Positions 7,659 through 52,740 of a stretch of 53,634 nucleotides of DNA are shown in pieces. The translations under genes and the position numbers were made by a program. Every line of letters begins with the position of its first letter. Positions within the stretch are counted from its first letter, which is position 1. Location of the stretch: contig JAGPNC010000004.1 in assembly GCA_018052565.1 (NCBI GenBank), positions 1 to 53,634 on the forward strand, in the 5' to 3' direction. The stretch comes from Candidatus Shapirobacteria bacterium. GTDB taxonomy: Bacteria > Patescibacteriota > Microgenomatia > 0-14-0-10-38-17. The notes beneath the pieces are model-generated. The model saw nothing but the letters and a program-made list of their open reading frames with translations. It had not been told where the DNA came from and ran no database searches.

Positions 7659-9290
7659 ATGGCTGACAAAAAGAATTTTTCCCCCCTTTTGGCTCGCCTG
7701 ATTCAAGATTATTGGCAGGCACTTGAGAAAAGCCGGCAGAAAAACCAAGAGGCAGCAGTTAGTGTTGACGAAATTGCCTCAAAGCTGGCGGTTTTTTACG
7801 AAAAAGTCCGCAAGGTGGTGGACTGGAAAGAAGAGAACTTGATTCGTCGCTCGGCCATTGAACGCTATCTTCGCCGCCACTTAGTCGGCGAAATTTCCCA
7901 GTTCTCCCTTAAAAAAAATATCAACAGCCAGAAAGTGGCGGAAACTATCGTTGCCGATCTGGTGCGGGGAGGCTACCTTAAGAATGGTCAAGTGCCGCAA
8001 AGTAAAATAGGGGAGGTAAAAAATATTTTGGATCGCTATCTTTTTCTTCTCAACCTCGTTTCCCGCCAAACGGCGGAAAAAGAAGTTAAAGAAAGAGTCA
8101 ATCAGTCAGTCTGGCTTTTTTCCCAAGCAGCCTGTGAAATTGAAAAGACCCTTGACCCCAGCTTCCGGGAAGATCTTTTAATCAATTTTATGTTTGACTC
8201 TCTAAGGGAACGTCTTCGCCTTGACCCGCAATTAAAAATCGAACCCCAAGAGGCAGAGGTGCAACTTTATATCGCCGTCTGCCAAAACCTTTTTAACCTT
8301 GATGAGGCAGAAATTACCTCGCGGCTTCTTCCCCTTTATTATCCTCACTGGAAAAATCCTGGCGAAAGCCTCAATATTCGCCTGATAAAAGAAGAAGTCG
8401 CCCAAAAGTTTAATCATCCACTCGCCAGCCAATGGCAAAAAATTTGCCGTCAAGAAAAGGCGATTTTTTTAATCTTAAGCGATATTTTCAGGGAAAAAGA
8501 GAAAGAGTCGAAAAGCTTCGAGGAATTTTGGGAGCAATTTGCGGTGGCAGAAAATTTTCAAGCCGTTGTAGAAGAAGCGTATCAAAAGCGATTTTCTACC
8601 CTCAAGTCACGGCTTCTCAGAACCGCCATTTATTCTACTCTTTCGATCCTTATTGCCAGTCTCTTTTCTCTTTTGATTTTAGAATTTCCGTTGGCAAAGT
8701 TAATTTATGGCCAATTCTTGCCTTTGGCCATGGCGGTTGATATCCTTATCCCCACTCTCTTGATGTTTCTTTTGGTGGCCCTGATTAGACCGCCAAAAAA
8801 AGAAAATTATCAGCAACTAGAACAAAAAATTTCCCAATTAGCCTATGGGGAAGGAGGAGAAAGCTATCTTTTAAAACCAAATAAGCCGCAAAGTCTTTTA
8901 AGCAGAGTTCTGCTTGCCTCTCTTTATCTTCTGGCCGCGATAACAGGAATAGGCTTAATCGGGGGGATTTTTTACTTAGCCAAAGTACCGCCTACCTCAA
9001 TCATTTTGGACACGATTAACGTCGCCATGATTATCTTTGCCGCTCTTTCCATCCGCCAAAGCGCCAAGGAAATAGACGTTGATGAAAAAGAGTCTTTTTT
9101 TGAGTTCTTTCTTGACACTCTTTTTGTTCCCGTAGGCCGTTTGGGTCAGTGGTTTTCGCAAAAATGGCGGGAATATAACGTGGCCAGCGTTTTTTTAAGT
9201 GTTTTAGTTGACCTTCCTTTTTCTTCGCTAGTTTCCTTCGTTGAGGACTGGCGCGCCTTCCTGCGGGAAAAACAAGCGGGAATTCGCTAA
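7659..9290 (+). CDS. Hypothetical membrane protein (soluble N-terminal ~320 aa, 4-5 C-terminal TM helices)
   Basis: 543-aa uninterrupted ORF with coding-like composition. I recognise no motif. Confidence 0.6.
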   Translation: MADKKNFSPLLARLIQDYWQALEKSRQKNQEAAVSVDEIASKLAVFYEKVRKVVDWKEENLIRRSAIERYLRRHLVGEISQFSLKKNINSQKVAETIVADLVRGGYLKNGQVPQSKIGEVKNILDRYLFLLNLVSRQTAEKEVKERVNQSVWLFSQAACEIEKTLDPSFREDLLINFMFDSLRERLRLDPQLKIEPQEAEVQLYIAVCQNLFNLDEAEITSRLLPLYYPHWKNPGESLNIRLIKEEVAQKFNHPLASQWQKICRQEKAIFLILSDIFREKEKESKSFEEFWEQFAVAENFQAVVEEAYQKRFSTLKSRLLRTAIYSTLSILIASLFSLLILEFPLAKLIYGQFLPLAMAVDILIPTLLMFLLVALIRPPKKENYQQLEQKISQLAYGEGGESYLLKPNKPQSLLSRVLLASLYLLAAITGIGLIGGIFYLAKVPPTSIILDTINVAMIIFAALSIRQSAKEIDVDEKESFFEFFLDTLFVPVGRLGQWFSQKWREYNVASVFLSVLVDLPFSSLVSFVEDWRAFLREKQAGIR

Positions 9291-27589: not shown

Positions 27590-28651
27590 CTACCAAGATG
27601 CTATTTTACGATTTTGGCGCCACCGGCCGGGGAGAGCGGCGCCGCACTTGGGGCAGGTGCCGTTTTGATCAAAACGGGCAATTTCGTAGCCGCGGCGTTT
27701 GATAACAAGCTGGTCGCAGGCAGGGCAGAGGGTGTCATCGTCCGAAGATGGTCCCAAATTGCCGGCATAAACGTATTTCAGGCCTCTTTTTAAAGCTTCT
27801 TGACGGGCTTCTTTAATTATTTGTGGCGGAGTAGCAGGCAGGTCTTTTAGCTTCCAGGAAATAGCGGGCGAGAAAGCGCTTAAATGCCAGGGGATAGCTT
27901 CGCCTAATTTTTCCCTAATAAAGTCGGCAATTTTATTTAAAATAGTCATCTTGTCGCTGAGGGTGGGAATAACTAGGGTGGTTACCTCCAGCCAAACTCC
28001 CTCTTTAACCAACCTTTGGCAATTTTTTAAAACCGGCGCCAGCTTTGCCCCGCAGACTTTCTGATAAAATTTTTCCTCACTTGATTTAATATCAATATTG
28101 GCGGCATCAAGATAGGGAAGAATGAGGTCTAAAGTTTTATCGCTCATAAAGCCATTGGAAACCCAGATGTTTTTCAAACCGGCCCGGCGGGCAAGCTTCA
28201 TTGTTTCTAGGGCATATTCTAAGAAAACCGTTGGCTCATTATAGGTATAAGCGATAGAAAGGCATTGGTTTTGGCGGGCAAGGATGACAATTTGCGAGGG
28301 GGCGAGGTTTTCTCCCCAAAAAAGACGGGAACAGGCCTCTTTTTTCCCTTTTTGGTTGCTAAGTTGGGAAATTTCCCAATTTTGGCAGTTAAGGCAGGAA
28401 AAATTACAGCCAAGAGTGCCAAAAGAAAAAGCAAAACTCCCCGGCAGGAAATGGTAAAGCGGCTTTTTTTCCACCGGATCAATGCCTAAGGCGGCCGCTC
28501 TGCCATAAACCAGAGAGTAAAATCGGCCGTTTTGATTTTCTCGCACCCCGCAAACCCCTAACCTGCCTAGCGCAATTTGGCAGGAATGATGGCAGGCAAA
28601 ACAACCAACTGCCTGGTTTGATTTTTCTTCCCAAAGAAGAGCTTCTTTCAT
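27590..28651 (-). CDS. AmmeMemoRadiSam system radical SAM enzyme
   Basis: VGCFACHHSCQI...GVCGVRENQNGRFYSL, CNFSCLNCQNWEISQ (CxxxCxxC), and a C-terminal CPAC...CPKC zinc-ribbon-like pair. Start chosen at MKEALLWEEK (28651) rather than the track start 28717. Confidence 0.85.
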   Translation of the reverse strand: MKEALLWEEKSNQAVGCFACHHSCQIALGRLGVCGVRENQNGRFYSLVYGRAAALGIDPVEKKPLYHFLPGSFAFSFGTLGCNFSCLNCQNWEISQLSNQKGKKEACSRLFWGENLAPSQIVILARQNQCLSIAYTYNEPTVFLEYALETMKLARRAGLKNIWVSNGFMSDKTLDLILPYLDAANIDIKSSEEKFYQKVCGAKLAPVLKNCQRLVKEGVWLEVTTLVIPTLSDKMTILNKIADFIREKLGEAIPWHLSAFSPAISWKLKDLPATPPQIIKEARQEALKRGLKYVYAGNLGPSSDDDTLCPACDQLVIKRRGYEIARFDQNGTCPKCGAALPGRWRQNRKIASW

Positions 28652-28779
28652 TTGCGAAAAAAAATTATCAGCCTCTTGATTTAGTTTAAGGATAGCGAAA
28701 GAAGAAGAAATTATCAAGGAGAGGGGAAATTAAATGGCTAGATTGTTGAGTTGCTCAATTGCTAGTGGCAGGGTGGTGG

Positions 28780-44498: not shown

Positions 44499-45335
44499 CT
44501 AAAAAAGAAATGATAGCCCTAAAATCAATAAAACAACACCGATGCCGCCTAACCCCAGTGTTACTTCCGGTAGGCCGCTAACTGGCATTTCCTCAGCGGA
44601 AGAAGCGAGCGTGGGAGCTGCCGTTGGCTGAACCTGAGAACCACCGGCCCTAAAAGAAGAAGTGGGGGTAGGGGAGGCCCTTAGGCCCGAGGTCGGCGTG
44701 GGTGTAGAAATTCCTGTCGGCGAAGGAGTCGGCGTGGGCGTAGAAATCCCTGTTGGCAAGGTAGTCGGCGTGGGCGATCCCGTTATCCCGCCGGCAAAGA
44801 TTAAAGTAGCCGCCGAGCGGTTTATAATCACATTAGCACCCCCTTCCTGAAGAGCTGCGGCCTGGGTTTCGGGCGAAAAACTTATCTGTGTATTTTTTTC
44901 TGTTGCTGTGGCCACTGTTTCTTTCACTAAGAAATGAAGGGTAGCCGCCACCCCCTGCCCGCTTTTTGGTCCGCCCGGAGGCGCTCCCAAAATATAAACT
45001 AGTTGTCCCGGAATGCTTGTGTCTTTTTTAAGCTCTACCGGCGAGGAAAAAAATGAGCCCGGGGCAACACTTTTTAAATTTAAATATTCAGTCGCATAGT
45101 TAATATGAAGCTCAATTGCCGCCACCACATTCTCGTTGGTATTAATAACCACGTTTAGATCGATTTCGTCGCCGGGCCGAACTAAACGACTGGCCGGTTC
45201 AAGAGCAATTGTTGTTGCCGGAGCGGCTTTAGTGCGAGTTTCCTGTCGTTGCTTGACCAAGAAAGAAACCCCTATGATCACCCCTATTCCTAAAATTGCC
45301 CCTCCAACCAGCAAAAAATTCTTTTTATTTTTCAT
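44499..45335 (-). CDS. Cohesin-like domain protein with Pro/Thr-rich stalk and C-terminal hydrophobic anchor
   Basis: N-terminal TM segment; cohesin-like beta domain (IDLNVVINTNENVVAAIELHINY...GVAATLHFLVKE); repeated GISTPTPTP stalk; C-terminal GLPEVTLGLGGIGVVLLILGLSFLF. Start at MKNKKNF (45335) avoids overlap with the upstream gene. Confidence 0.65.
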   Translation of the reverse strand: MKNKKNFLLVGGAILGIGVIIGVSFLVKQRQETRTKAAPATTIALEPASRLVRPGDEIDLNVVINTNENVVAAIELHINYATEYLNLKSVAPGSFFSSPVELKKDTSIPGQLVYILGAPPGGPKSGQGVAATLHFLVKETVATATEKNTQISFSPETQAAALQEGGANVIINRSAATLIFAGGITGSPTPTTLPTGISTPTPTPSPTGISTPTPTSGLRASPTPTSSFRAGGSQVQPTAAPTLASSAEEMPVSGLPEVTLGLGGIGVVLLILGLSFLF

Positions 45336-45339
45336 AAAA

Positions 45340-45912
45340 TTATTCTGCTTTTTCTTCAATTTTAATTTTTAGAGGCCGAGCTGACTTTACCACGTTTTTC
45401 TCTTCCCCTATCGCCGCCGCTTGGGTTTGCGCTGAAAAATTGACCAAAGTTTCTCCTTTGTGGCCTTTCTCCTTGACCAAAAAATTAATTAAAACCAAAT
45501 TCCCTTTCCCTTGCCGCGGCTTTTGCGGGGAACACAAAAAAGTAAAAAATGCCTTCCCTTCCGCATTATCAATTCTTTGCTCTGCTACCGTTGCCGGCGT
45601 AAAAAAATCTCCCGGCAAAATGCTGATAATTTCTAAGAATTTATCTTCAAACTCCAGCCCAATTTCTATCCCCGCAAGAATATTTTGCCCCGAGTCGACC
45701 ATCAACATCACCGGTACGGTTTTGCCTGCTTCTGCGACGATTTCCTCCGGCTGCCAATAGAAACTTGTCTGCGCCTGTGGACCAAACCGAGAATTTTTTC
45801 TTAACCACCAATTTAGAAAAAGAACCACTAAGAGAGCTAAAAAAAGCCCTCCCAGAAGAAGGTTTTTCTTCTCCGCGCGCTTTGGTTTTTTTTCCTGATT
45901 AATTTCCTTCAT
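45340..45912 (-). CDS. Cohesin-like domain protein, N-terminally anchored
   Basis: TM segment, then VPVMLMVDSGQNILAGIEIGLEFEDKFLEIISILPGDFF...GNLVLINFLVKEKG (cohesin-like pattern). Confidence 0.6.
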   Translation of the reverse strand: MKEINQEKKPKRAEKKNLLLGGLFLALLVVLFLNWWLRKNSRFGPQAQTSFYWQPEEIVAEAGKTVPVMLMVDSGQNILAGIEIGLEFEDKFLEIISILPGDFFTPATVAEQRIDNAEGKAFFTFLCSPQKPRQGKGNLVLINFLVKEKGHKGETLVNFSAQTQAAAIGEEKNVVKSARPLKIKIEEKAE

Positions 45913-46021
45913 TTTTATAAAGAGATTAGGATACTTTTGGCGTTTCCTCTTCTTTTGGCGCTATTATTAATAGCGACGGCGCCAAAATCTTATTAAAATC
46001 CTGCCCCGAAATATTGGTTTT

Positions 46022-49000
46022 CTATTGAGAACTATCCCAGTAGGGGTCGAGATTTTCCAAAAAGATCCGCACTTCTTCGCTGTCGCTAAAAAGACGATGA
46101 GGCGAACTCTGCGGCCCAAGAAAAGTTGATTCCTTCTCCAGCTTGATTAAATTAGTAATTGTCGTTGGCACCGGTCCGTCTAGTTGATTATAACGAAGAT
46201 GTAAGCCTATCAACGTTGTCAAATTGCCGATTGCTTCGGGAATGTGGCCGGAAAGCTGGTTGTCATCAAGATGAAGGCTGGTTAATTGGGTAAGGTTGCC
46301 GATTGTTTCGGGGATGGAACCGGAAAGCTGGTTGGTAAAAAGATAAAGCTCGGTTAATTGGGTAAGGTTGCCGATTGTTTCGGGGATGGAACCGGAGAGC
46401 TGGTTAGCGTAAAGCCAAAGTTCTTTCAGTTGGGACAAGCCGCCGATTGTTTCGGGGATGGAACCGGAAAGCTGGTTATTGTTAAGATAAAGGTCGGTTA
46501 ATTGAGTAAGGTTGCCGATTGTTTCGGGGATGGAACCGGAAAGCTGGTTAGCGTGAAGCCAAAGTTCTTTCAGTTGGGACAAGTTGCCGATTGTTTCGGG
46601 GATGGAACCGGAAAGCTGGTTATTGTTAAGATAAAGGCCGGTTAATTGGGTAAGGTTGCCGATGCTGGCCGGGATAGAACCGGAGAGTTGGTTATAAAAA
46701 AGATAAAGTTCTCTCAGTTGGGACAAGTTGCCGATTGTTTCGGGGATAGGATCGGAAAACTGGTTATTGTCAAGATAAAGGCCGGTTAATTGGGTAAGGT
46801 TGCCGATGCTGGCCGGGATAGAACCGGAGAGTTGGTTAGTGCCTAGATAAAGTTCTCTTAGTTGGGACAAGTTGCCGATTGTTTCGGGGATGGAACCGGA
46901 AAGCTCGTTAAGCTGAAGATAAAGTCCTTTTAGTTGGGACAAGTTGCCGATTGTTTCGGGGATGGAACCGGAAAGTTGATTGCCGTTAAGACGAAGATTA
47001 GCCACATGGCCGTCTTCACAAGTCACTCCATACCAGCCGCACGGCTTGGTATTCAAATCCCACCTATTATCCCAGCCTGAACCGTTAGTTTGCCTGTATA
47101 AGTCCAGAAGCGCCGCCTTTTCTTCGGCAGAAACTTCCCCCTCTTCGATAGGGGTAATTGACACCGGCGCTGTGGTTGGCGTAGGCGTGACCGTCGGTGG
47201 CTTTTCGGTCACTGTCTCCCCCTGTTTATCAAAATTCTCCACCAACAAAGCGTAATCAAAAATATCAATTCGCCCATTGCCGTTGAGGTCGGGCGCCAAA
47301 CCCGTTTCTTCTTTGCCAAAATCTTCCAAAAGAGCATTATAATCAAAAATATCAATTTTGTTGTTATTGTCAATATCGCCCGCTAAAAGCTGGCCCACCG
47401 CCACGGCCTTAATCTCCCCCTTGTTTAAGGATACCTCCGGAATGACTCGGCTTAAATGAACCGGCCCCTTAACCCAAAAGGAAGTATTTTCCAAATCAGA
47501 ATTCTGGTCGCTCATAATTTGTACCGGCGAAAAACCTTCGGCGCCAATTTCTAACTGGTAAGAGGCAATTTCTCCCCCCGAAGCATTATAAATTTTTACC
47601 GTTACCAAAGAATGATTATCCTGACGATTTTGTAATTTTAAATTAATTTGAAAAGCAGGATGATCGGGGTGGGGAGTAACTATTGGCGTAGGAGCAGGCG
47701 TCGCCGTTGGCGCAGGGGTAGGCGTCGCCGTTGGCGCAGGAGTAGGGGTAGAGAGGGGAGTTGGAGAAAGAGTAACGGTCGGAGTTGGCGTAATTGAAGT
47801 CGATGGAAAAGAGGCCGCTCGCTCCATTGCCGCCAACACATCTATTAGCCCCGCTCCATATTCCAATTCATTGTAATTAGGAATCGCTACCTTATTTGCC
47901 GTCTCTTCTAAAATGCTTTTAACATCTATTGGCGAAAGATTGGGATTAATACTTAGCATTAATGCTATCGTCGCAGTCACATGCGGCGTAGCCATTGAAG
48001 TCCCTTGGTAAAGAATCAGGGGAAATATATACCAACCAGGTCTACTGGGATCGGGGATATAACAATAATAATATTCTCCCCCTGAAAGTACGTAAAAAAC
48101 CTCTGTAAAATTTTCGAAATCGTTAGGAAAAATAGTCTGTTGAACAATGCCATCAGCCAGCCCGTCTTCGTTTTGGTCCCATAAATCATCCTCATTATCG
48201 TTAAATATTTGTCCCCCGGGGGCAACCAAATCCAAGGCTTCGCCATAATCGGAATAATAAGCCCTAACGTTATCCCAACGCGTTGCCCCCACGGCAATTG
48301 CTTCCTCATACTTAGCCGGATAAAGCATGTTATAAGCGGAAGGAGCTCCTCGGCTGGCGTCGTTTCCCGAAGCAGCCACTACCACTATTCCCGCCTCTAC
48401 TGCCCTTTCAATAGCCTCATGCAATGTCTCTGCTGCGAATGATTGTCCGAAACTCATATTAATAATATCGGCGCCCTTGCTCACCGCATAGTCAATTCCT
48501 TCAATTATGTCTGAAGTATAACCTTCGCCATTTGAATCCAAAGACTTAATAGGGATAATCGTTATTCTTGGGGCAATACCAGCAGCATGGGCGCCATTGT
48601 TTGTCTCTTGAGCAATAGTGGCCGTTACGTGCGTTCCATGACCATGATCATCATTTGGATGGCTATTCCTAATCGTTTCCACGTATCCGCCATTATTATC
48701 AAAAACGCTGGTAATTCTCCGCGGCGAGGAAAAATTAGTGTACGCCAATTCGGGCGCTTTTCCGTATTGAGCTGAACCATTGTTATAATCCTCGAAGGCC
48801 ACCCCCGTATCAATCACCGCCACCTTAATTTCCGGGCCACCCCCTTGACGAGCAACCTCAAACTCTTCCCATGCCTGAGGCAAGCTAATTCTTTCCAAGT
48901 TCCACTGGAAATAGTCCTTTGGGGATTTATCGCCTCCCTCGCCAACAAGATAAGGATCGTTTGGTGCCCATAGAAGGTGAACCGGGTAATTGGGTTCCGC

Positions 49001-49504
49001 CACCACCACCTCTCTTTCTTGAGAATAATCTACAATTGCTTCGGCCAGATTTACTTCTTCGGGAAGTTCGACCATTACCGTTCTCTCGGCCACTCTTGTT
49101 CTTCCTAAAGCCTCCATCCTTTCTATCCCCAGCTTTTTGTTTAAATCAGTTACGCCGCTCATCCCCTTAACGGCAATCCCTCCTTTTCGAAGAACCACTT
49201 TCTTGCCAAGGAGACTCACGGAAATTTCTTTTTCTTCCTCAATAACTGGCTTTTTCTTAAAAGTAATGATGATTTGTCTTGGAATCTTCTCTTCCTTTAA
49301 AAACCGTCCCGCCGGCGAAATTCTTGAAACATCTTGGGAAATTTCAAAAGGAGAAGGTGCTTGCGCAAAAATCAATTTTGGGGAATAATTCCCCGAAGCA
49401 AAAAAACTTACCGCCACTGCCAAAAATATCGCCGCAGAGAAAAACCGCTTTGCTCTTAAAAAAGCGGGGGTATTTTCTCCTCTCTTGTCATTCTTGTCTT
49501 CCAC
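46022..49504 (-). CDS. Surface S8 (subtilisin-like) peptidase fused to dockerin-like repeats and 12 plant-type leucine-rich repeats
   Basis: 1160 aa. Catalytic triad contexts: VIDTGV, HGTHVTA, GTSMATPHV. PT-rich linkers. Two EF-hand-like repeats: DIDNNNKIDIFDYNALL and DLNGNGRIDIFDYALL. LRRNT-like cap CGWYGVTC, followed by 24-aa LxxLxxLxLxxNQLSGSIPETIGN repeats. Confidence 0.85.
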   Translation of the reverse strand: MEDKNDKRGENTPAFLRAKRFFSAAIFLAVAVSFFASGNYSPKLIFAQAPSPFEISQDVSRISPAGRFLKEEKIPRQIIITFKKKPVIEEEKEISVSLLGKKVVLRKGGIAVKGMSGVTDLNKKLGIERMEALGRTRVAERTVMVELPEEVNLAEAIVDYSQEREVVVAEPNYPVHLLWAPNDPYLVGEGGDKSPKDYFQWNLERISLPQAWEEFEVARQGGGPEIKVAVIDTGVAFEDYNNGSAQYGKAPELAYTNFSSPRRITSVFDNNGGYVETIRNSHPNDDHGHGTHVTATIAQETNNGAHAAGIAPRITIIPIKSLDSNGEGYTSDIIEGIDYAVSKGADIINMSFGQSFAAETLHEAIERAVEAGIVVVAASGNDASRGAPSAYNMLYPAKYEEAIAVGATRWDNVRAYYSDYGEALDLVAPGGQIFNDNEDDLWDQNEDGLADGIVQQTIFPNDFENFTEVFYVLSGGEYYYCYIPDPSRPGWYIFPLILYQGTSMATPHVTATIALMLSINPNLSPIDVKSILEETANKVAIPNYNELEYGAGLIDVLAAMERAASFPSTSITPTPTVTLSPTPLSTPTPAPTATPTPAPTATPAPTPIVTPHPDHPAFQINLKLQNRQDNHSLVTVKIYNASGGEIASYQLEIGAEGFSPVQIMSDQNSDLENTSFWVKGPVHLSRVIPEVSLNKGEIKAVAVGQLLAGDIDNNNKIDIFDYNALLEDFGKEETGLAPDLNGNGRIDIFDYALLVENFDKQGETVTEKPPTVTPTPTTAPVSITPIEEGEVSAEEKAALLDLYRQTNGSGWDNRWDLNTKPCGWYGVTCEDGHVANLRLNGNQLSGSIPETIGNLSQLKGLYLQLNELSGSIPETIGNLSQLRELYLGTNQLSGSIPASIGNLTQLTGLYLDNNQFSDPIPETIGNLSQLRELYLFYNQLSGSIPASIGNLTQLTGLYLNNNQLSGSIPETIGNLSQLKELWLHANQLSGSIPETIGNLTQLTDLYLNNNQLSGSIPETIGGLSQLKELWLYANQLSGSIPETIGNLTQLTELYLFTNQLSGSIPETIGNLTQLTSLHLDDNQLSGHIPEAIGNLTTLIGLHLRYNQLDGPVPTTITNLIKLEKESTFLGPQSSPHRLFSDSEEVRIFLENLDPYWDSSQ
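46157..47008 (-). repeat. Tandem 72-bp (144-bp super-period) coding repeats encoding the LRR array
   Basis: GTTGCCGATTGTTTCGGGGATGGAACCGGAAAGCTGGTT recurs about every 72 bp. Units alternate between LTQLT..LYLNNNQ and LSQLKELWL.ANQ types. Confidence 0.85.
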
Positions 49505-49619
49505 TTTTTCGCCTTAATTATTAAATATAATGCCTCAAATTGTCGTTGCCGACCTGGCTCTAACTATAAATAAAAAAAAACTTTTTGTCAATCAGTAGTC
49601 AGTAGTTTTTTCCCCGAAA

Positions 49620-49988
49620 TTAGCGCCATTGACAACGGTCTTCAAAGCATGAACACCGTTTTTGATAGCGCTCGGCATTATAGCAGGAACGATACTCGCA
49701 AGTGGTCGCCCTTTCTTCCTCGTTTTTCGCCCGGCAAACCTGCCCCGAGCAACCACCCGCTTGACAGTCTTTGTCGCTTTTGCATTCACCATAGGTCGAA
49801 AAGCCGCAAAATTCTTCGCTTGTCGTTTTAATTTGCTCGTTATCTTGAGAAGAGGTTTGGCCTTCTTTTTTTTTGCTTTCTTTATTCTGGCCAATAAAAA
49901 AAATGCCCATCGCAATGTTAATTATTAATACTACCAGAAAAAGCCCCCAAAAAAAACCTTTCTGCCTTATCGTAAATTTCTTCTTCAT
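49620..49988 (-). CDS. Membrane-anchored eight-cysteine small protein
   Basis: TM segment, then CGFSTYGECKSDKDCQAGGCSGQVC...TTCEYRSCY...CSCFEDRCQW (8 Cys). The pattern resembles the eight-cysteine-cluster domain family. Confidence 0.65.
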   Translation of the reverse strand: MKKKFTIRQKGFFWGLFLVVLIINIAMGIFFIGQNKESKKKEGQTSSQDNEQIKTTSEEFCGFSTYGECKSDKDCQAGGCSGQVCRAKNEEERATTCEYRSCYNAERYQKRCSCFEDRCQWR

Positions 49989-50063: not shown

Positions 50064-50324
50064 TTAGTCGTGCTCTGTAAACACTTTCTTGAAAGTCGCA
50101 TCCTTTTCTTCCAAATACTCAATTAACATCGCCGCATGCTCTTTTTCCTCATCGCGATTGTGGGCGAGAATTCTCTTTAACTCTTCATCATCGCTGGCCT
50201 GGAAACGCTCTTCGTAAACATTAATCGCGTCAAGCTCTTCAATTAAAGACTGCCTGGCTCGCGCCAAGTTTTTGGCCTCCTCTGTTTGCTTTTCTGCATC
50301 GCTTCCTAAGTTATAGCTCATCAT
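50064..50324 (-). CDS. EncFtn-like (encapsulated-ferritin family) half-ferritin, no targeting tail
   Basis: 86 aa; strong SD GGAGGAGGTG. LDAINVYEER and ILAHNRDEEKEHAAMLIEYL match the EncFtn di-iron region as I recall it. Confidence 0.7.
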   Translation of the reverse strand: MMSYNLGSDAEKQTEEAKNLARARQSLIEELDAINVYEERFQASDDEELKRILAHNRDEEKEHAAMLIEYLEEKDATFKKVFTEHD

Positions 50325-51140: not shown

Positions 51141-51276
51141 TGGTATTATTCTAACCTAAATAAGAGCATTTAGAAATAAGCCGCAGAAAAAATCTTGTCT
51201 CTTTTTTTATATAAAATTCAGCTGGCAGACAAAATGATAGTTTAACCGCTTCCGGTTAGTTATATAATGGATCTTG

Positions 51277-52740
51277 ATGAAAACGAAAAAATTCACCATC
51301 CTCCATTCCAACGACATGCACGGCGACTTCTTGGCCGAAATTAAAGCTGGCAAAAAAGAACTAATTGGCGGTCTTGCTCTTCTTTCCGGCTATATTAACA
51401 AGGTAAGAAAAGAAGAAGAAAATGTTCTTTATGTTATCTCCGGCGACATGCTCCAGGGCTCTTTAATTGACAGTGAGTGGAAAGGCTGCTCCACCATTGA
51501 AATTATGAATTATCTGGCTCCTGACGTGGTTACCGTAGGCAATCATGAAGTTGATTATGGCTTGCCCCATCTTCTTTTCTTGGAAAAAATGGCCAATTTT
51601 CCGATTATCAACGCCAACCTCTATATCACCAAAAATAACCGCCGCATTTTACAGCCGTACCTGATTATTAAAAAAGCCGGCTTTGACATTCTTTTCACTG
51701 GCATTATCACCGAGAAGGTTATGGATTCCATTAAACAAGATAAATTAATCGGCACTTTTGTAAGCATTGAGGAAGCCAGCCAAGAGGTAGGGAAAATCTG
51801 CAACGCTTATAAAAACAACGATATCGACTTAACCATTTTGCTTACTCATATTGGCTTTGAGTCCGACAAAGAGTTGGCAAAACTTTTGAAACCCGAATGG
51901 GGAGTGGACATGATTATCGGCGGCCATTCCCACACCGTTTTGGAAAAACCGGCCAAAGTTAACAACATCTTGATTGCCCAAGCCGGAGTGGGCACCAACC
52001 AGATCGGCCGCTTTGATATTGTCGTTGATGACAACACCAACAGCATTGTTGATTATCAATGGCAGCTTATTCCCATCGACGAACATTTAGCCAAACCCGA
52101 CAAGAAACTGGAAGAATATATCCAAAGCTTCCAAAAAGAAGTAGAGAGAAAATATAACGTGATTATCACTAAATTTTCCCAAAAGCTAACCCATCCAAGG
52201 CGAGAAGTGGAAACTTCTTTGGGAAATTTAGTCGCCGACGCGCTGGCCGCCTGCGCCGAGTGCGACGTGATGCTGGTGGGCAGCGGCTCAATCCGCGGCA
52301 AAGAGCTGGGGCCGGCGGTCACTTTAAAAGATCTACTCGCTTGTTTCCCTTATAGCGGCCCCTTGAAACGTTTCGCCATCACCGGCGCCCAGCTTTGGAA
52401 AATTTTTGAACATATTATGAGGCCGGAAAACAGAAACGGGGAAGGGGAATGTTATCAGATAAACAGCGGCGTAAAGGCCGTTTACTCCGACAAAGATCAC
52501 CGGCTCGAATCGCTTGCCATCAACGGCACTCCGATTGACCGAACCAAATTTTACACTCTTTGCCTGCAGGAATATCATTTTAATAATTCCGCCGCTTATT
52601 TAAACATCACTAACGAAGAGCTTTTATCATCCGGCCAGTCGAAAGTGGTCAGCACCTCCGACCGGGAGGTTTTAGAAGAATTTTTGAAAAACAACCAGAA
52701 CATTTCTCGGAAAGTTGAGGGAAGGCTGGTCTATCGATAA
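51277..52740 (+). CDS. Bifunctional metallophosphatase / 5'-nucleotidase family protein (no signal peptide)
   Basis: ILHSNDMHGDF, GDMLQGS, GNHEVDYG, GGHSHT. TATAAT at 51263-51268 lies 8 nt upstream of the ATG. Confidence 0.85.
   Translation: MKTKKFTILHSNDMHGDFLAEIKAGKKELIGGLALLSGYINKVRKEEENVLYVISGDMLQGSLIDSEWKGCSTIEIMNYLAPDVVTVGNHEVDYGLPHLLFLEKMANFPIINANLYITKNNRRILQPYLIIKKAGFDILFTGIITEKVMDSIKQDKLIGTFVSIEEASQEVGKICNAYKNNDIDLTILLTHIGFESDKELAKLLKPEWGVDMIIGGHSHTVLEKPAKVNNILIAQAGVGTNQIGRFDIVVDDNTNSIVDYQWQLIPIDEHLAKPDKKLEEYIQSFQKEVERKYNVIITKFSQKLTHPRREVETSLGNLVADALAACAECDVMLVGSGSIRGKELGPAVTLKDLLACFPYSGPLKRFAITGAQLWKIFEHIMRPENRNGEGECYQINSGVKAVYSDKDHRLESLAINGTPIDRTKFYTLCLQEYHFNNSAAYLNITNEELLSSGQSKVVSTSDREVLEEFLKNNQNISRKVEGRLVYR

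Follow-up and report, generated by a model that had tools for sequence, protein, structure and literature searches.

A predicted cohesin–dockerin cassette that may hold a subtilisin-type protease on the cell surface of a Candidatus Shapirobacteria bacterium

In Ruminococcus flavefaciens, the sortase-anchored protein ScaE carries a single cohesin that binds dockerin-bearing peptidases as well as dyads of an X module and a dockerin (X-Doc) (PMC5301203, PMC3573020). Dockerins are found in the same organism on peptidases, serpins and leucine-rich repeat (LRR) proteins, and a subtilisin-like protease with a dockerin is known from Clostridium thermocellum (PMC3573020). Ca. Stygibacter (Cloacimonadota) combines a dockerin-tagged S8 peptidase with a cohesin scaffoldin (PMC8542988), and non-cellulosomal cohesin and dockerin modules are known as well (Peer et al., 2009, cited in PMC10066038). 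Here we describe a three-gene locus from a Candidatus Shapirobacteria bacterium (assembly GCA_018052565.1), in which the gene for a predicted secreted subtilisin-type protease with a dockerin (gene A) is followed by two genes for cohesin proteins with predicted membrane anchors (genes B and C). The DNA analysed, referred to below as the window, comprises positions 1 to 53,634 of contig JAGPNC010000004.1. We consider it probable that the three proteins make up a minimal, non-cellulosomal cohesin–dockerin system that holds the protease on the producer's own cell surface.

The three genes lie co-directionally on the minus strand in the order A-B-C, as a unit of about 5 kb. In the list of open reading frames (ORFs), gene A (46022-49504) encodes 1160 amino acids from a GTG start. 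Gene B (45340-45912) encodes 190 residues, with an N-terminal transmembrane (TM) helix (residues 14-38) and one cohesin (approximately 50-186) on a short tether, and gene C (44499-45359) encodes 286 residues from a TTG start, with a TM helix (13-37), a cohesin (approximately 50-190), a Pro/Thr-rich (PT) stalk (191-255) and a C-terminal tail (258-286). The call on record for C (P0123) starts at an ATG at 45335 and gives 278 residues; with this start the 20-nt overlap with B disappears. The spacer between A and B is 109 nt. A strong promoter-like, sigma-70-like site, TTGACA-17-TATAGT (49563-49591, minus strand), lies some 59 nt before gene A begins; it is a consensus match only, at 11 of 12 positions. 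Since there is such a site before A and no convincing terminator was found between A, B and C, the locus is compatible with a single transcription unit. A hairpin in the A-B intergenic region was rejected as a regulatory element (z = -1.77 against shuffled controls, not significant). Within the window A is the sole dockerin ORF and B and C are the sole cohesin ORFs, and all three are adjacent. A first-pass annotation, made by a model from the letters alone, had placed the three ORFs exactly here, and had read A as an S8 protease (with Asp, His and Ser contexts) bearing a dockerin repeat pair and an LRRNT-like cap with 12 LRRs of 24 residues, and B and C as cohesin proteins with a TM segment, one of them on a PT stalk. 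These assignments are borne out by the profile, fold and repeat analyses given below, which add two elements that had gone unrecognised, the X-Doc dyad of A and the hydrophobic C-terminal tail of C.

The dockerin of A (residues 706-763; 47216-47389, minus strand, as for all coordinates within A, B and C) contains two 12-residue Ca2+ loops, DIDNNNKIDIFD and DLNGNGRIDIFD, which are spaced 29 residues apart and fit the dockerin pattern of a duplicated segment of ~22 residues with Asp or Asn at loop positions 1, 3, 5, 9 and 12. Each is followed by a helix, predicted at low confidence at residues 115-123 and 144-152 of a model of the dyad. Adjoining the dockerin on its N-terminal side is a beta-rich X module (residues 613-705; 47390-47668; …FWVKGPVHLSRVI…) whose strands are likewise predicted at low confidence and whose C-terminal half aligns with the X module of C. 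thermocellum CipA. A profile of A residues 605-790 and three homologs (four sequences) matched the type II X-dockerin of CipA (2b59_B) with E = 6.9e-8, the related structures 3kcp, 5g5d (to 1e-6), 4wi0 and 4u3s, and C. perfringens 2jnk with E = 6e-5. The alignment with 2b59_B covers profile positions 41-143 and chain residues 48-157, so that it takes in the second half of the X module and both Ca2+ loops, and pairs 'YTLKISRATYLDRVIANVVV' of CipA with 'SFWVKGPVHLSRVIPEVSL' of A. The 58-residue dockerin segment on its own matches solved dockerins among the PDB sequences (E = 7e-4 to 0.1). Judged by its sequence, A carries a type II-like X-Doc dyad that is homologous to dockerins with proven cohesin binding, and it is predicted to bind a cohesin itself. 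Both repeats are identical at the cohesin-contact positions (Ile-Phe at 10-11, Leu/Val-Glu at 17-18 and Lys at 22), and this near-symmetry would, by analogy, be that of dockerins with a dual binding mode (PMC5301203). The best match of the dockerin in single-sequence PDB searches is 8x3a/8x39, a 152-residue chain named 'Serine protease' that has three dockerin-like repeats and may be a relevant solved case of a protease-borne dockerin.

The type II X-Doc of CipA, through which it pairs with SdbA, OlpB and Orf2p (PDB 2b59, 3kcp), is like that of A in its X-plus-dockerin homology and in serving a surface-attaching interaction. However, the dyad of CipA stands at the C-terminus of a scaffoldin, whereas that of A is internal to an enzyme and has an LRR region after it; the cohesins of the window are not type II-like, and have predicted TM helices where the CipA partners rely on S-layer homology (SLH) anchoring.

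N-terminal to the dyad, A has the layout of an exported subtilase. Residues 1-40 (49385-49504) comprise a basic N-region and a hydrophobic core (18-39), probably a Sec signal peptide with a putative cleavage site, and the orthologs carry classical cleavable signals. The region of about residues 60-175 (48980-49327) resembles a Fervidolysin_NPro-like propeptide, at 12.7 bits and thus below the cutoff; the propeptide is clear in homologs, reaching 37 bits in P0013, a homolog from the contig L003 discussed below. The Peptidase_S8 domain (PF00082; residues 224-552; 47849-48835) scores 171 bits against a cutoff of 21.8, has canonical DTG, HGTH, GTSMAxP and SGN motifs, and keeps D232, H289, S503 and the oxyanion residue N381 invariant in the homolog alignment. 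By profile and catalytic motifs A is a subtilase, with predicted protease activity and predicted autoprocessing. A Pro/Thr-rich linker (residues 561-612; 47669-47824), which is a 24-bp tandem repeat at the DNA level, leads from the protease to the X module, and a second PT linker, recognised from its sequence (residues 764-792; 47129-47215), follows the dockerin.

Both B and C match the Cohesin family (PF00963), with 39.5 and 38.2 bits, respectively, against a cutoff of 24.1, and the two are paralogous, aligning along their full length with 27% identity (E = 7e-20). An AlphaFold model of B from the single sequence (predicted local distance difference test score, pLDDT, of 71) consists of a helix at 14-40 and a beta-sandwich of about 10 strands. 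In a Foldseek search the model comes closest to type I cohesins that were solved together with dockerins (6kgf, 4dh2 and 2vn5, E about 3e-6), and cohesins account for 8 of the 10 top matches (E = 3e-6 to 2e-5; target-normalised template modelling score 0.44-0.58), a result that applies to B only. A nine-sequence cohesin profile matched approximately 20 solved cohesins in the PDB, the best being CohA2 of C. acetobutylicum (E = 1.1e-5). The matches extend to NagJ of C. perfringens and to 2xdh of Archaeoglobus fulgidus (E = 4e-5), with SdbA, a cohesin of type II, at the margin (E = 0.63). Earlier single-sequence PDB searches with B and C, which gave weak cohesin matches (E = 0.26-0.49) and a spurious plastocyanin, are superseded by these profile and fold searches.

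The arrangement recurs in other genomes. Protein A has its closest homolog in P0003, with 48% identity across the part that the two have in common; P0003 lies on contigs L001, L004, L005 and L007, all from one organism; L004 (JGI Ga0307380_10000001) is the same sequence as L007 (DATKWK010000023.1), of 846,852 bp. On L001 the S8-X-Doc gene is followed by a gene for a TM-cohesin of 199 residues and then by one for a TM-cohesin of 305 residues with a PT stalk and tail, so that the A-B-C order proposed as a check in the first-pass annotation is found there complete, within flanks entirely unlike those of the window (def, fmt and L28 upstream; AMMECR1, LigB and radical SAM genes downstream). Protein B is 39% identical to the 199-residue protein and C is 44% identical to the 305-residue protein, whereas comparisons of B with C across the two organisms give 24-28%, and the two L001 proteins share 34%. 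Since the orthologs are more alike than the crossed pairs, the two anchors must be older than the split between the window and L001 lineages, and the cassette has been inherited as a unit. Elsewhere, an S8-X-Doc gene (P0013) on L003 is followed by cohesin genes, and an S8-Doc gene (P0011) on L002 precedes a gene for a 366-residue TM protein that is a diverged cohesin (hhalign probability 94.9%), so that a dockerin-tagged S8 gene lies directly upstream of cohesin genes in four lineages. A metagenome scan from the dockerin side added L017 and L019, where a dockerin ORF is followed by a protein with signal peptide, cohesin and C-terminal TM segment. On the other side, only 6 of the 120 best S8 homologs have paired Ca2+ loops. 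The 847-kb relative carries def, fmt, L28, MreBCD and a penicillin-binding protein (PBP) transpeptidase, all bacterial genes, although its record is titled 'Candidatus Bathyarchaeia archaeon'; DATKWK010000023.1 is probably a mislabelled or misbinned metagenome-assembled genome (MAG).

The most informative of these relatives is L003 (ENA ERZ24794679 NODE_12982, 1-19425), where ten dockerin-bearing and seven cohesin-bearing proteins are clustered. The ten dockerins fall into three types, alpha, beta and gamma, with 50-81% identity within a type and at most 42% between types. Four cargo genes with alpha dockerins come first, followed by a TM-cohesin-X-Doc(beta) gene and the S8-X-Doc(beta) gene; then come a TM-cohesin-X-Doc(gamma) gene, a TM-cohesin of 211 residues and a PD40/Tricorn-like protein with X-Doc(gamma); the series ends with a TM-cohesin of 210 residues, 94% identical to that of 211, and a stalked cohesin of the C type. 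Each dockerin type is upstream of one particular cohesin; for the gamma type, whose two dockerins share 81% identity, this is a TM-cohesin present in two copies, one after each dockerin. Such a layout is what one would predict if each dockerin had the next cohesin downstream as its partner, with the cohesin-X-Doc proteins acting as adaptors along a chain down to the membrane. Although it remains a correlation, the co-variation is the strongest indirect evidence available for an interaction of the A dockerin with a cohesin; by analogy, that dockerin would most likely bind B, and possibly C also. With hydrolase-like proteins, the S8 protease and the PD40/Tricorn-like protein as cargo, the L003 cluster looks like a hierarchical chain in the style of a cellulosome.

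Taking these data together, the following scheme can be proposed for the window. Protein A would be exported by Sec, and maturation of the S8 domain would remove signal and propeptide, leaving a mature enzyme without an N-terminal anchor. Retention at the surface would then have to come from a C-terminal module, since signal and propeptide are lost, and the X-Doc would be that module. The internal dyad of mature A would plug, in a Ca2+-dependent manner, into the single cohesin of B, of C or of both. Protein B, on its short tether behind the N-terminal TM helix, would keep its cohesin near the membrane, while C would show a paralogous cohesin on a Pro/Thr stalk of approximately 65 residues with a hydrophobic C-terminal anchor, probably through or beyond the wall. 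The LRR solenoid, a lineage-specific element, would recruit a protein, as ligand or as substrate, to the tethered enzyme. For a cell with a reduced genome the pay-off could be proteolysis kept at the surface, either for scavenging amino acids and peptides or for processing surface proteins.

Several observations weigh against this scheme. The evidence for pairing between the dockerin and the cohesins consists of genetic linkage alone, and the model does not account for the presence of two cohesins and one dockerin. Nor can the pairing be a simple copy of a known type, since the cohesins are like type I, type III or non-cellulosomal ones and the X-Doc is type II-like. The N-terminal helices of B and C could be anchors or cleaved signals, their topology being read from hydropathy and from a single helix modelled by AlphaFold. 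For the X-Doc, prediction from the four-sequence alignment gave a poor AlphaFold model (pLDDT 46.5), and Foldseek returned no significant structural match to it (best E = 0.027), for which reasons it was kept out of the evidence. The Dockerin_1 (PF00404) score of A, 22.8 bits over residues 708-755, is 0.1 bit short of the 22.9 cutoff, a marginal result that is rescued by the ortholog P0003, which passes with 23.0 bits, by the PDB matches of the dockerin segment and by the match of the X-plus-dockerin profile to X-dockerin structures. As for distribution, three more distant dockerin-like S8 genes (P0087, P0026 and P0112) stand without a cohesin gene beside them, a homolog search through the word index brought up nothing for B other than B itself, and a relative of C was found in only one GTDB species representative. 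A search with the nine-sequence cohesin profile yielded 5 proteins, and a scan of genome contigs with an alignment yielded only one locus, that of the L001 organism. The cassette is rare in current databases, and its conservation therefore rests on a handful of lineages.

Compared with the systems considered at the outset, the locus shares with ScaE a monovalent cohesin fixed to the envelope that would capture dockerin proteins, peptidases and X-Doc dyads among them, possibly through symmetrical dockerins of dual mode. ScaE, however, works within a cellulosome of more than 220 dockerin proteins and has a canonical LPXTG anchor, whereas the window has one cargo, two paralogous anchors directly 3' of it, no polysaccharide context and no match to a sorting signal; moreover, the LRR-borne dockerins of R. 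flavefaciens bound none of the cohesins tested. Ca. Stygibacter is similar in being an uncultivated, non-clostridial organism with cohesins and a dockerin-tagged S8/S53 peptidase, read as a polypeptide-degrading extracellular complex (PMC8542988), but it has a 3,755-residue multi-cohesin scaffoldin with carbohydrate-binding modules (CBMs) and a C-terminal domain of the type IX secretion system (T9SS) type in place of tiny monovalent TM anchors syntenic with their cargo. The non-cellulosomal modules of A. fulgidus (2xdh) and of the C. perfringens toxin-complex proteins NagH and NagJ (2jnk, 2o4e, 2ozn), several of which were matched by our profiles, also lack a cellulose-degrading context; they belong to scattered genes or large glycosidases, not to a three-gene series of cargo, anchor and anchor. 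The window holds monovalent cohesins only, one protease as cargo, and neither a CBM nor a dockerin-tagged glycoside hydrolase. The cassette is thus predicted to work like a cellulosome anchor, but it is not a cellulosome.

The remainder of A is its LRR arm. An LRRNT_2-type cap (residues 793-829; 47018-47128; …W…CGWYGVTC), at 22.5 bits against a cutoff of 20.7, is followed by exactly 12 in-register repeats of 24 residues (residues 835-1122; 46139-47002; LxxLxLxxNQLSGSIPETIGNL) and by a C-terminal tail that is non-repetitive in sequence (1123-1160; 46025-46138). The array scores 126 bits for LRR_1, 118 for LRR_14 and 107 for LRR_8. At the DNA level its period is 72 or 144 bp with only 75-86% matches, so it is diverged and not the product of assembly collapse. 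In P0003 a PT-rich tail follows the dockerin at the place where A has PT linker, LRRNT cap and 12 LRRs, and in P0013 the dockerin is the last element. The arm is thus an addition of this lineage, attached through the PT linker; a double assembly chimera is unlikely, since the ortholog of B begins 109 nt after the stop codon of the LRR. GC content at third codon positions (GC3) is 0.52-0.57 in the LRRNT/LRR segments (46139-47128) and 0.40-0.42 in the S8 and X-Doc parts (47216-49504), but this contrast hints only weakly at acquisition, as the other genes of the window range from 0.375 to 0.53. GC skew is positive in the 46-48 kb bin and negative in the bin on either side. Both contrasts are compatible with separate acquisition of the LRR or with codon bias driven by the repeats.

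The repeats and cap fit the published consensus of the plant-specific class, of 23-25 residues and the form LxxLxLxxNxL(t/s)GxIPxxLGxLxx (PMC2946307), which agrees with the first-pass description of the repeats as typical of plant receptor kinases. What does not follow is any pointer to plants. An exhaustive HMMER search of 1.84 billion representatives with full-length A returned 29,595 proteins at E <= 1e-30, and the best 150 of these are A itself (P0002) and 149 giant proteins of 1,356-7,821 residues that match in the LRRNT-LRR region with 33-55% identity. When sub-regions of A were compared with the giants by local phmmer, the S8 region matched 11 of the 149 and the X-Doc segment none. Four giants that were inspected (P0215, P0186, P0260 and P0221) have the architecture propeptide-S8-(LRR)n, and P0186 ends in a T9SS sorting tail. 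In P0215, P0186, P0260, P0221, P0162 and P0165, of 2,000-4,300 residues, a fervidolysin-type propeptide and S8 domain precede a region in which the plant-specific LRR motif is matched 24-43 times. Since the class is abundant in bacterial giants, some of which start with a propeptide and S8 domain, it is plant-specific by name only. Receptor-kinase and polygalacturonase-inhibiting protein (PGIP) ectodomains of plants do have the same LRRNT_2 cap and 24-residue repeat, but the arm of A comes without TM segment or kinase and is closer to bacterial proteins than to the plant receptor kinase CEPR2, with which it shares 35% identity. The giants resemble A in joining propeptide and S8 to this LRR class in an extracellular, cell-attached protein; they differ in their length (about 2,000 residues or longer), in having no X-Doc and, for P0186, in attachment through a T9SS domain. 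A predicted protease on an LRR rod is thus a recurrent bacterial surface architecture, and together the T9SS-tailed S8-LRR protein and the peptidase-dockerins of ScaE (PMC5301203) support the logic of a surface-tethered protease. Within these searches, A is unique in the predicted combination of S8 and LRR with X-Doc and syntenic cohesins.

The arm may be a targeting arm for a protein ligand or substrate, and this invites a reading, in line with the host-attachment device suggested in the first-pass annotation, in which cohesin-anchored A is mainly an adhesin, its LRR gripping a protein of a host bacterium (possibly of a eukaryote) while the protease remodels the contact surface. LRR domains are protein-binding surfaces, and the region gives partial matches to XopL/XopAE-type and internalin-like models; Patescibacteria are thought to be largely episymbiotic, and an adhesin role has been suggested for non-cellulosomal dockerins that ultra-small Omnitrophota carry on giant ORFs (PMC10066038). 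Against this, the LRR is absent from the only clear ortholog, so that adhesion through it cannot be the conserved function of the cassette, and the hydrolase-like and PD40/Tricorn-like cargo of related loci looks more like that of a general enzyme-display platform. Host attachment is compatible with tethering but adds a speculative role to it, and we regard it as unlikely. The same evidence divides the proposal of the first-pass annotation that the locus is a self-contained display unit for a protease with a recognition arm: synteny upholds the cassette, but the arm lies outside the conserved module. A broader and more speculative view, to which we give little credence, is that co-linear 'plug-and-socket' display cassettes are spread through Patescibacteria and related ultra-small bacteria, with each dockerin cargo gene placed directly before that of a cognate TM-anchored cohesin and some of them chained through cohesin-X-dockerin adaptors as on L003, and that in the present case an LRR was captured and the tethered protease cleaves a host-surface protein at the interface of episymbiont and host, with two anchors, B near the membrane and C on its stalk, setting its reach.

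Equally doubtful is a reading in which the proteins are released or fixed to the wall, the N-terminal segments of B and C being cleaved, C being linked by a sortase through a [MV]PxxG motif, and B being soluble, its single cohesin serving to cap or regulate the dockerin. Besides the hydrophobic segments at residues 14-38 of B and 13-37 of C, C has a second one at 260-286, within a tail of MPVSG and 24 hydrophobic residues (44502-44588). C-type proteins of two other lineages end in 'VPVTG…' and 'VPETG…' with a hydrophobic stretch, so that [MV]P[VE][ST]G before a hydrophobic C-terminus is common to three lineages. The C-type protein of L003 has a classical cleavable signal and a tail that approaches the LPXTG_anchor model (14.0 bits, cutoff 15.9), and ScaE is itself anchored by sortase (PMC5301203). 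However, the C tails of the window and of L001 match none of the NCBIfam sorting-signal models at E up to 10 and lack the basic tail that is typical for LPXTG signals, and no sortase motif (TLxTC) occurs in the 53.6-kb window. For these reasons the tail is taken as a second membrane anchor, a divergent sortase-type signal being a minority possibility. The N-terminal helices of B and C, of 20-25 residues, are charged on both sides and have no nearby AxA site, the helix of B is modelled as one long unit, and in the related cohesins of L017 and L019 the C-terminus is a plain TM segment with a KLRRKKP stop-transfer tail.

After the N-terminal helix a recurrent leader was noted, of the form [KR]x[RQ]Q-x3-5-[RK]-x-[KRH]-A(A), examples being VKQRQETRTKAA, VRRRQEARLKAA, GQRQIFEKRA and AQQRVIFRKRAA. 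It is present at 45215-45359 of the window (the N-terminus of C), at 6444-6570 of L001, at 8821, 12053 and 14217 of L003, at 1102 of L015 and at 50 and 1301 of L016, and thus on cohesin proteins and dockerin cargo of several lineages; as a regular expression it is found in 7 of 329 ORFs, 6 of which belong to these systems. A function as a dedicated signal for export or processing is possible.

That there is no functional link at all, the dockerin-like segment of A being structural Ca2+ loops and B and C generic beta-sandwich proteins adjacent by coincidence, would fit the marginal Dockerin_1 score, the commonness of EF-hand-like DxDxDG loops in secreted proteins and the dockerin-like S8 genes without cohesin neighbours, but is most improbable given the four independent lineages with a dockerin-tagged S8 directly upstream of cohesins, the co-duplication of dockerins and cohesins on L003, the homology of the X-Doc profile to dockerins with proven cohesin binding, and the rarity of the cohesin domain, both window copies of which nevertheless adjoin the sole dockerin.

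The surroundings of the cassette are a protein with an eight-cysteine domain upstream, and a glycoside hydrolase of family 57 (GH57), a SIMPL protein and tryptophanyl-tRNA synthetase (TrpRS) downstream. The upstream gene (49620-49988, minus strand), directly before A and on the same strand, encodes 122 residues that include a TM helix at the N-terminus and an eight-cysteine-cluster domain; the latter matches TIGR04289 (68 bits, cutoff 50), and the protein has no Pfam match. As it is not upstream of the L001 ortholog it is probably outside the cassette, though a small, extracellular, Cys-rich neighbour of A could be an inhibitor or partner of the protease. Next to it, at 50064-50324 (minus strand), is an 86-residue gene of the EncFtn (encapsulated ferritin) kind (86 bits); the Pfam-scanned ORFs on its two sides (49620-49988 and 51274-52740) are not encapsulin shell proteins. 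Genes of the AmmeMemoRadiSam type, a Memo-AMMECR1 fusion and a radical-SAM protein, occur in the window far from the cassette (718-2250 and 27590-28717, both minus strand), and AMMECR1, LigB/Memo-like and radical-SAM genes stand immediately 3' of the cassette on L001 (7349-10200); their position relative to the cassette in the two genomes is probably a coincidence. At 7659-9290 (plus strand) is a gene for a 543-residue protein without a Pfam domain, for which reason its identification as GroEL was rejected. Its cluster at >=90% identity has 34 members from NCBI, JGI, ENA and Logan, one of them from a MAG named 'Patescibacteria group bacterium', a conservation that is unusually high for a hypothetical protein. 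The other gene content, including DUF4012, DUF2207, Wzy_C and the Memo-AMMECR1 fusion, fits Patescibacteria, and neither tRNA genes nor Rfam elements were found in the window.

In conclusion, every component of the locus has a precedent, and the first-pass statement that such a combination is not a described system was too strong in view of ScaE, the dockerin-bearing LRR proteins and peptidases, the subtilisin-like protease of C. thermocellum and Ca. Stygibacter (PMC5301203, PMC3573020, PMC8542988). What is new is the compact, inherited cassette of cargo, anchor and anchor, the association of a type II-like X-Doc with monovalent, TM-anchored cohesins that are not of type II, and the LRR placed after the dockerin. 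In the literature searched we found no paper on cohesin–dockerin cassettes in the candidate phyla radiation (CPR; Patescibacteria), and no dedicated three-gene cassette of this kind. Should B or C prove to be the partner of the A dockerin, this would be among the smallest natural cohesin–dockerin systems, with one cargo and two monovalent anchors in 5 kb, in a reduced genome with no context of plant-cell-wall degradation, and the principle would be extended to general surface display in CPR-like bacteria. It would also suggest looking for the cohesin partner of a dockerin immediately 3' of it, a rule of thumb by which specificities could be predicted in metagenomes and orthogonal pairs mined for synthetic biology. 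The surface biology of CPR-like bacteria and their interface with hosts are poorly understood, and the LRR-tagged protease offers a concrete candidate for a partner-recognising surface protein that could be approached with recombinant proteins, without culture.

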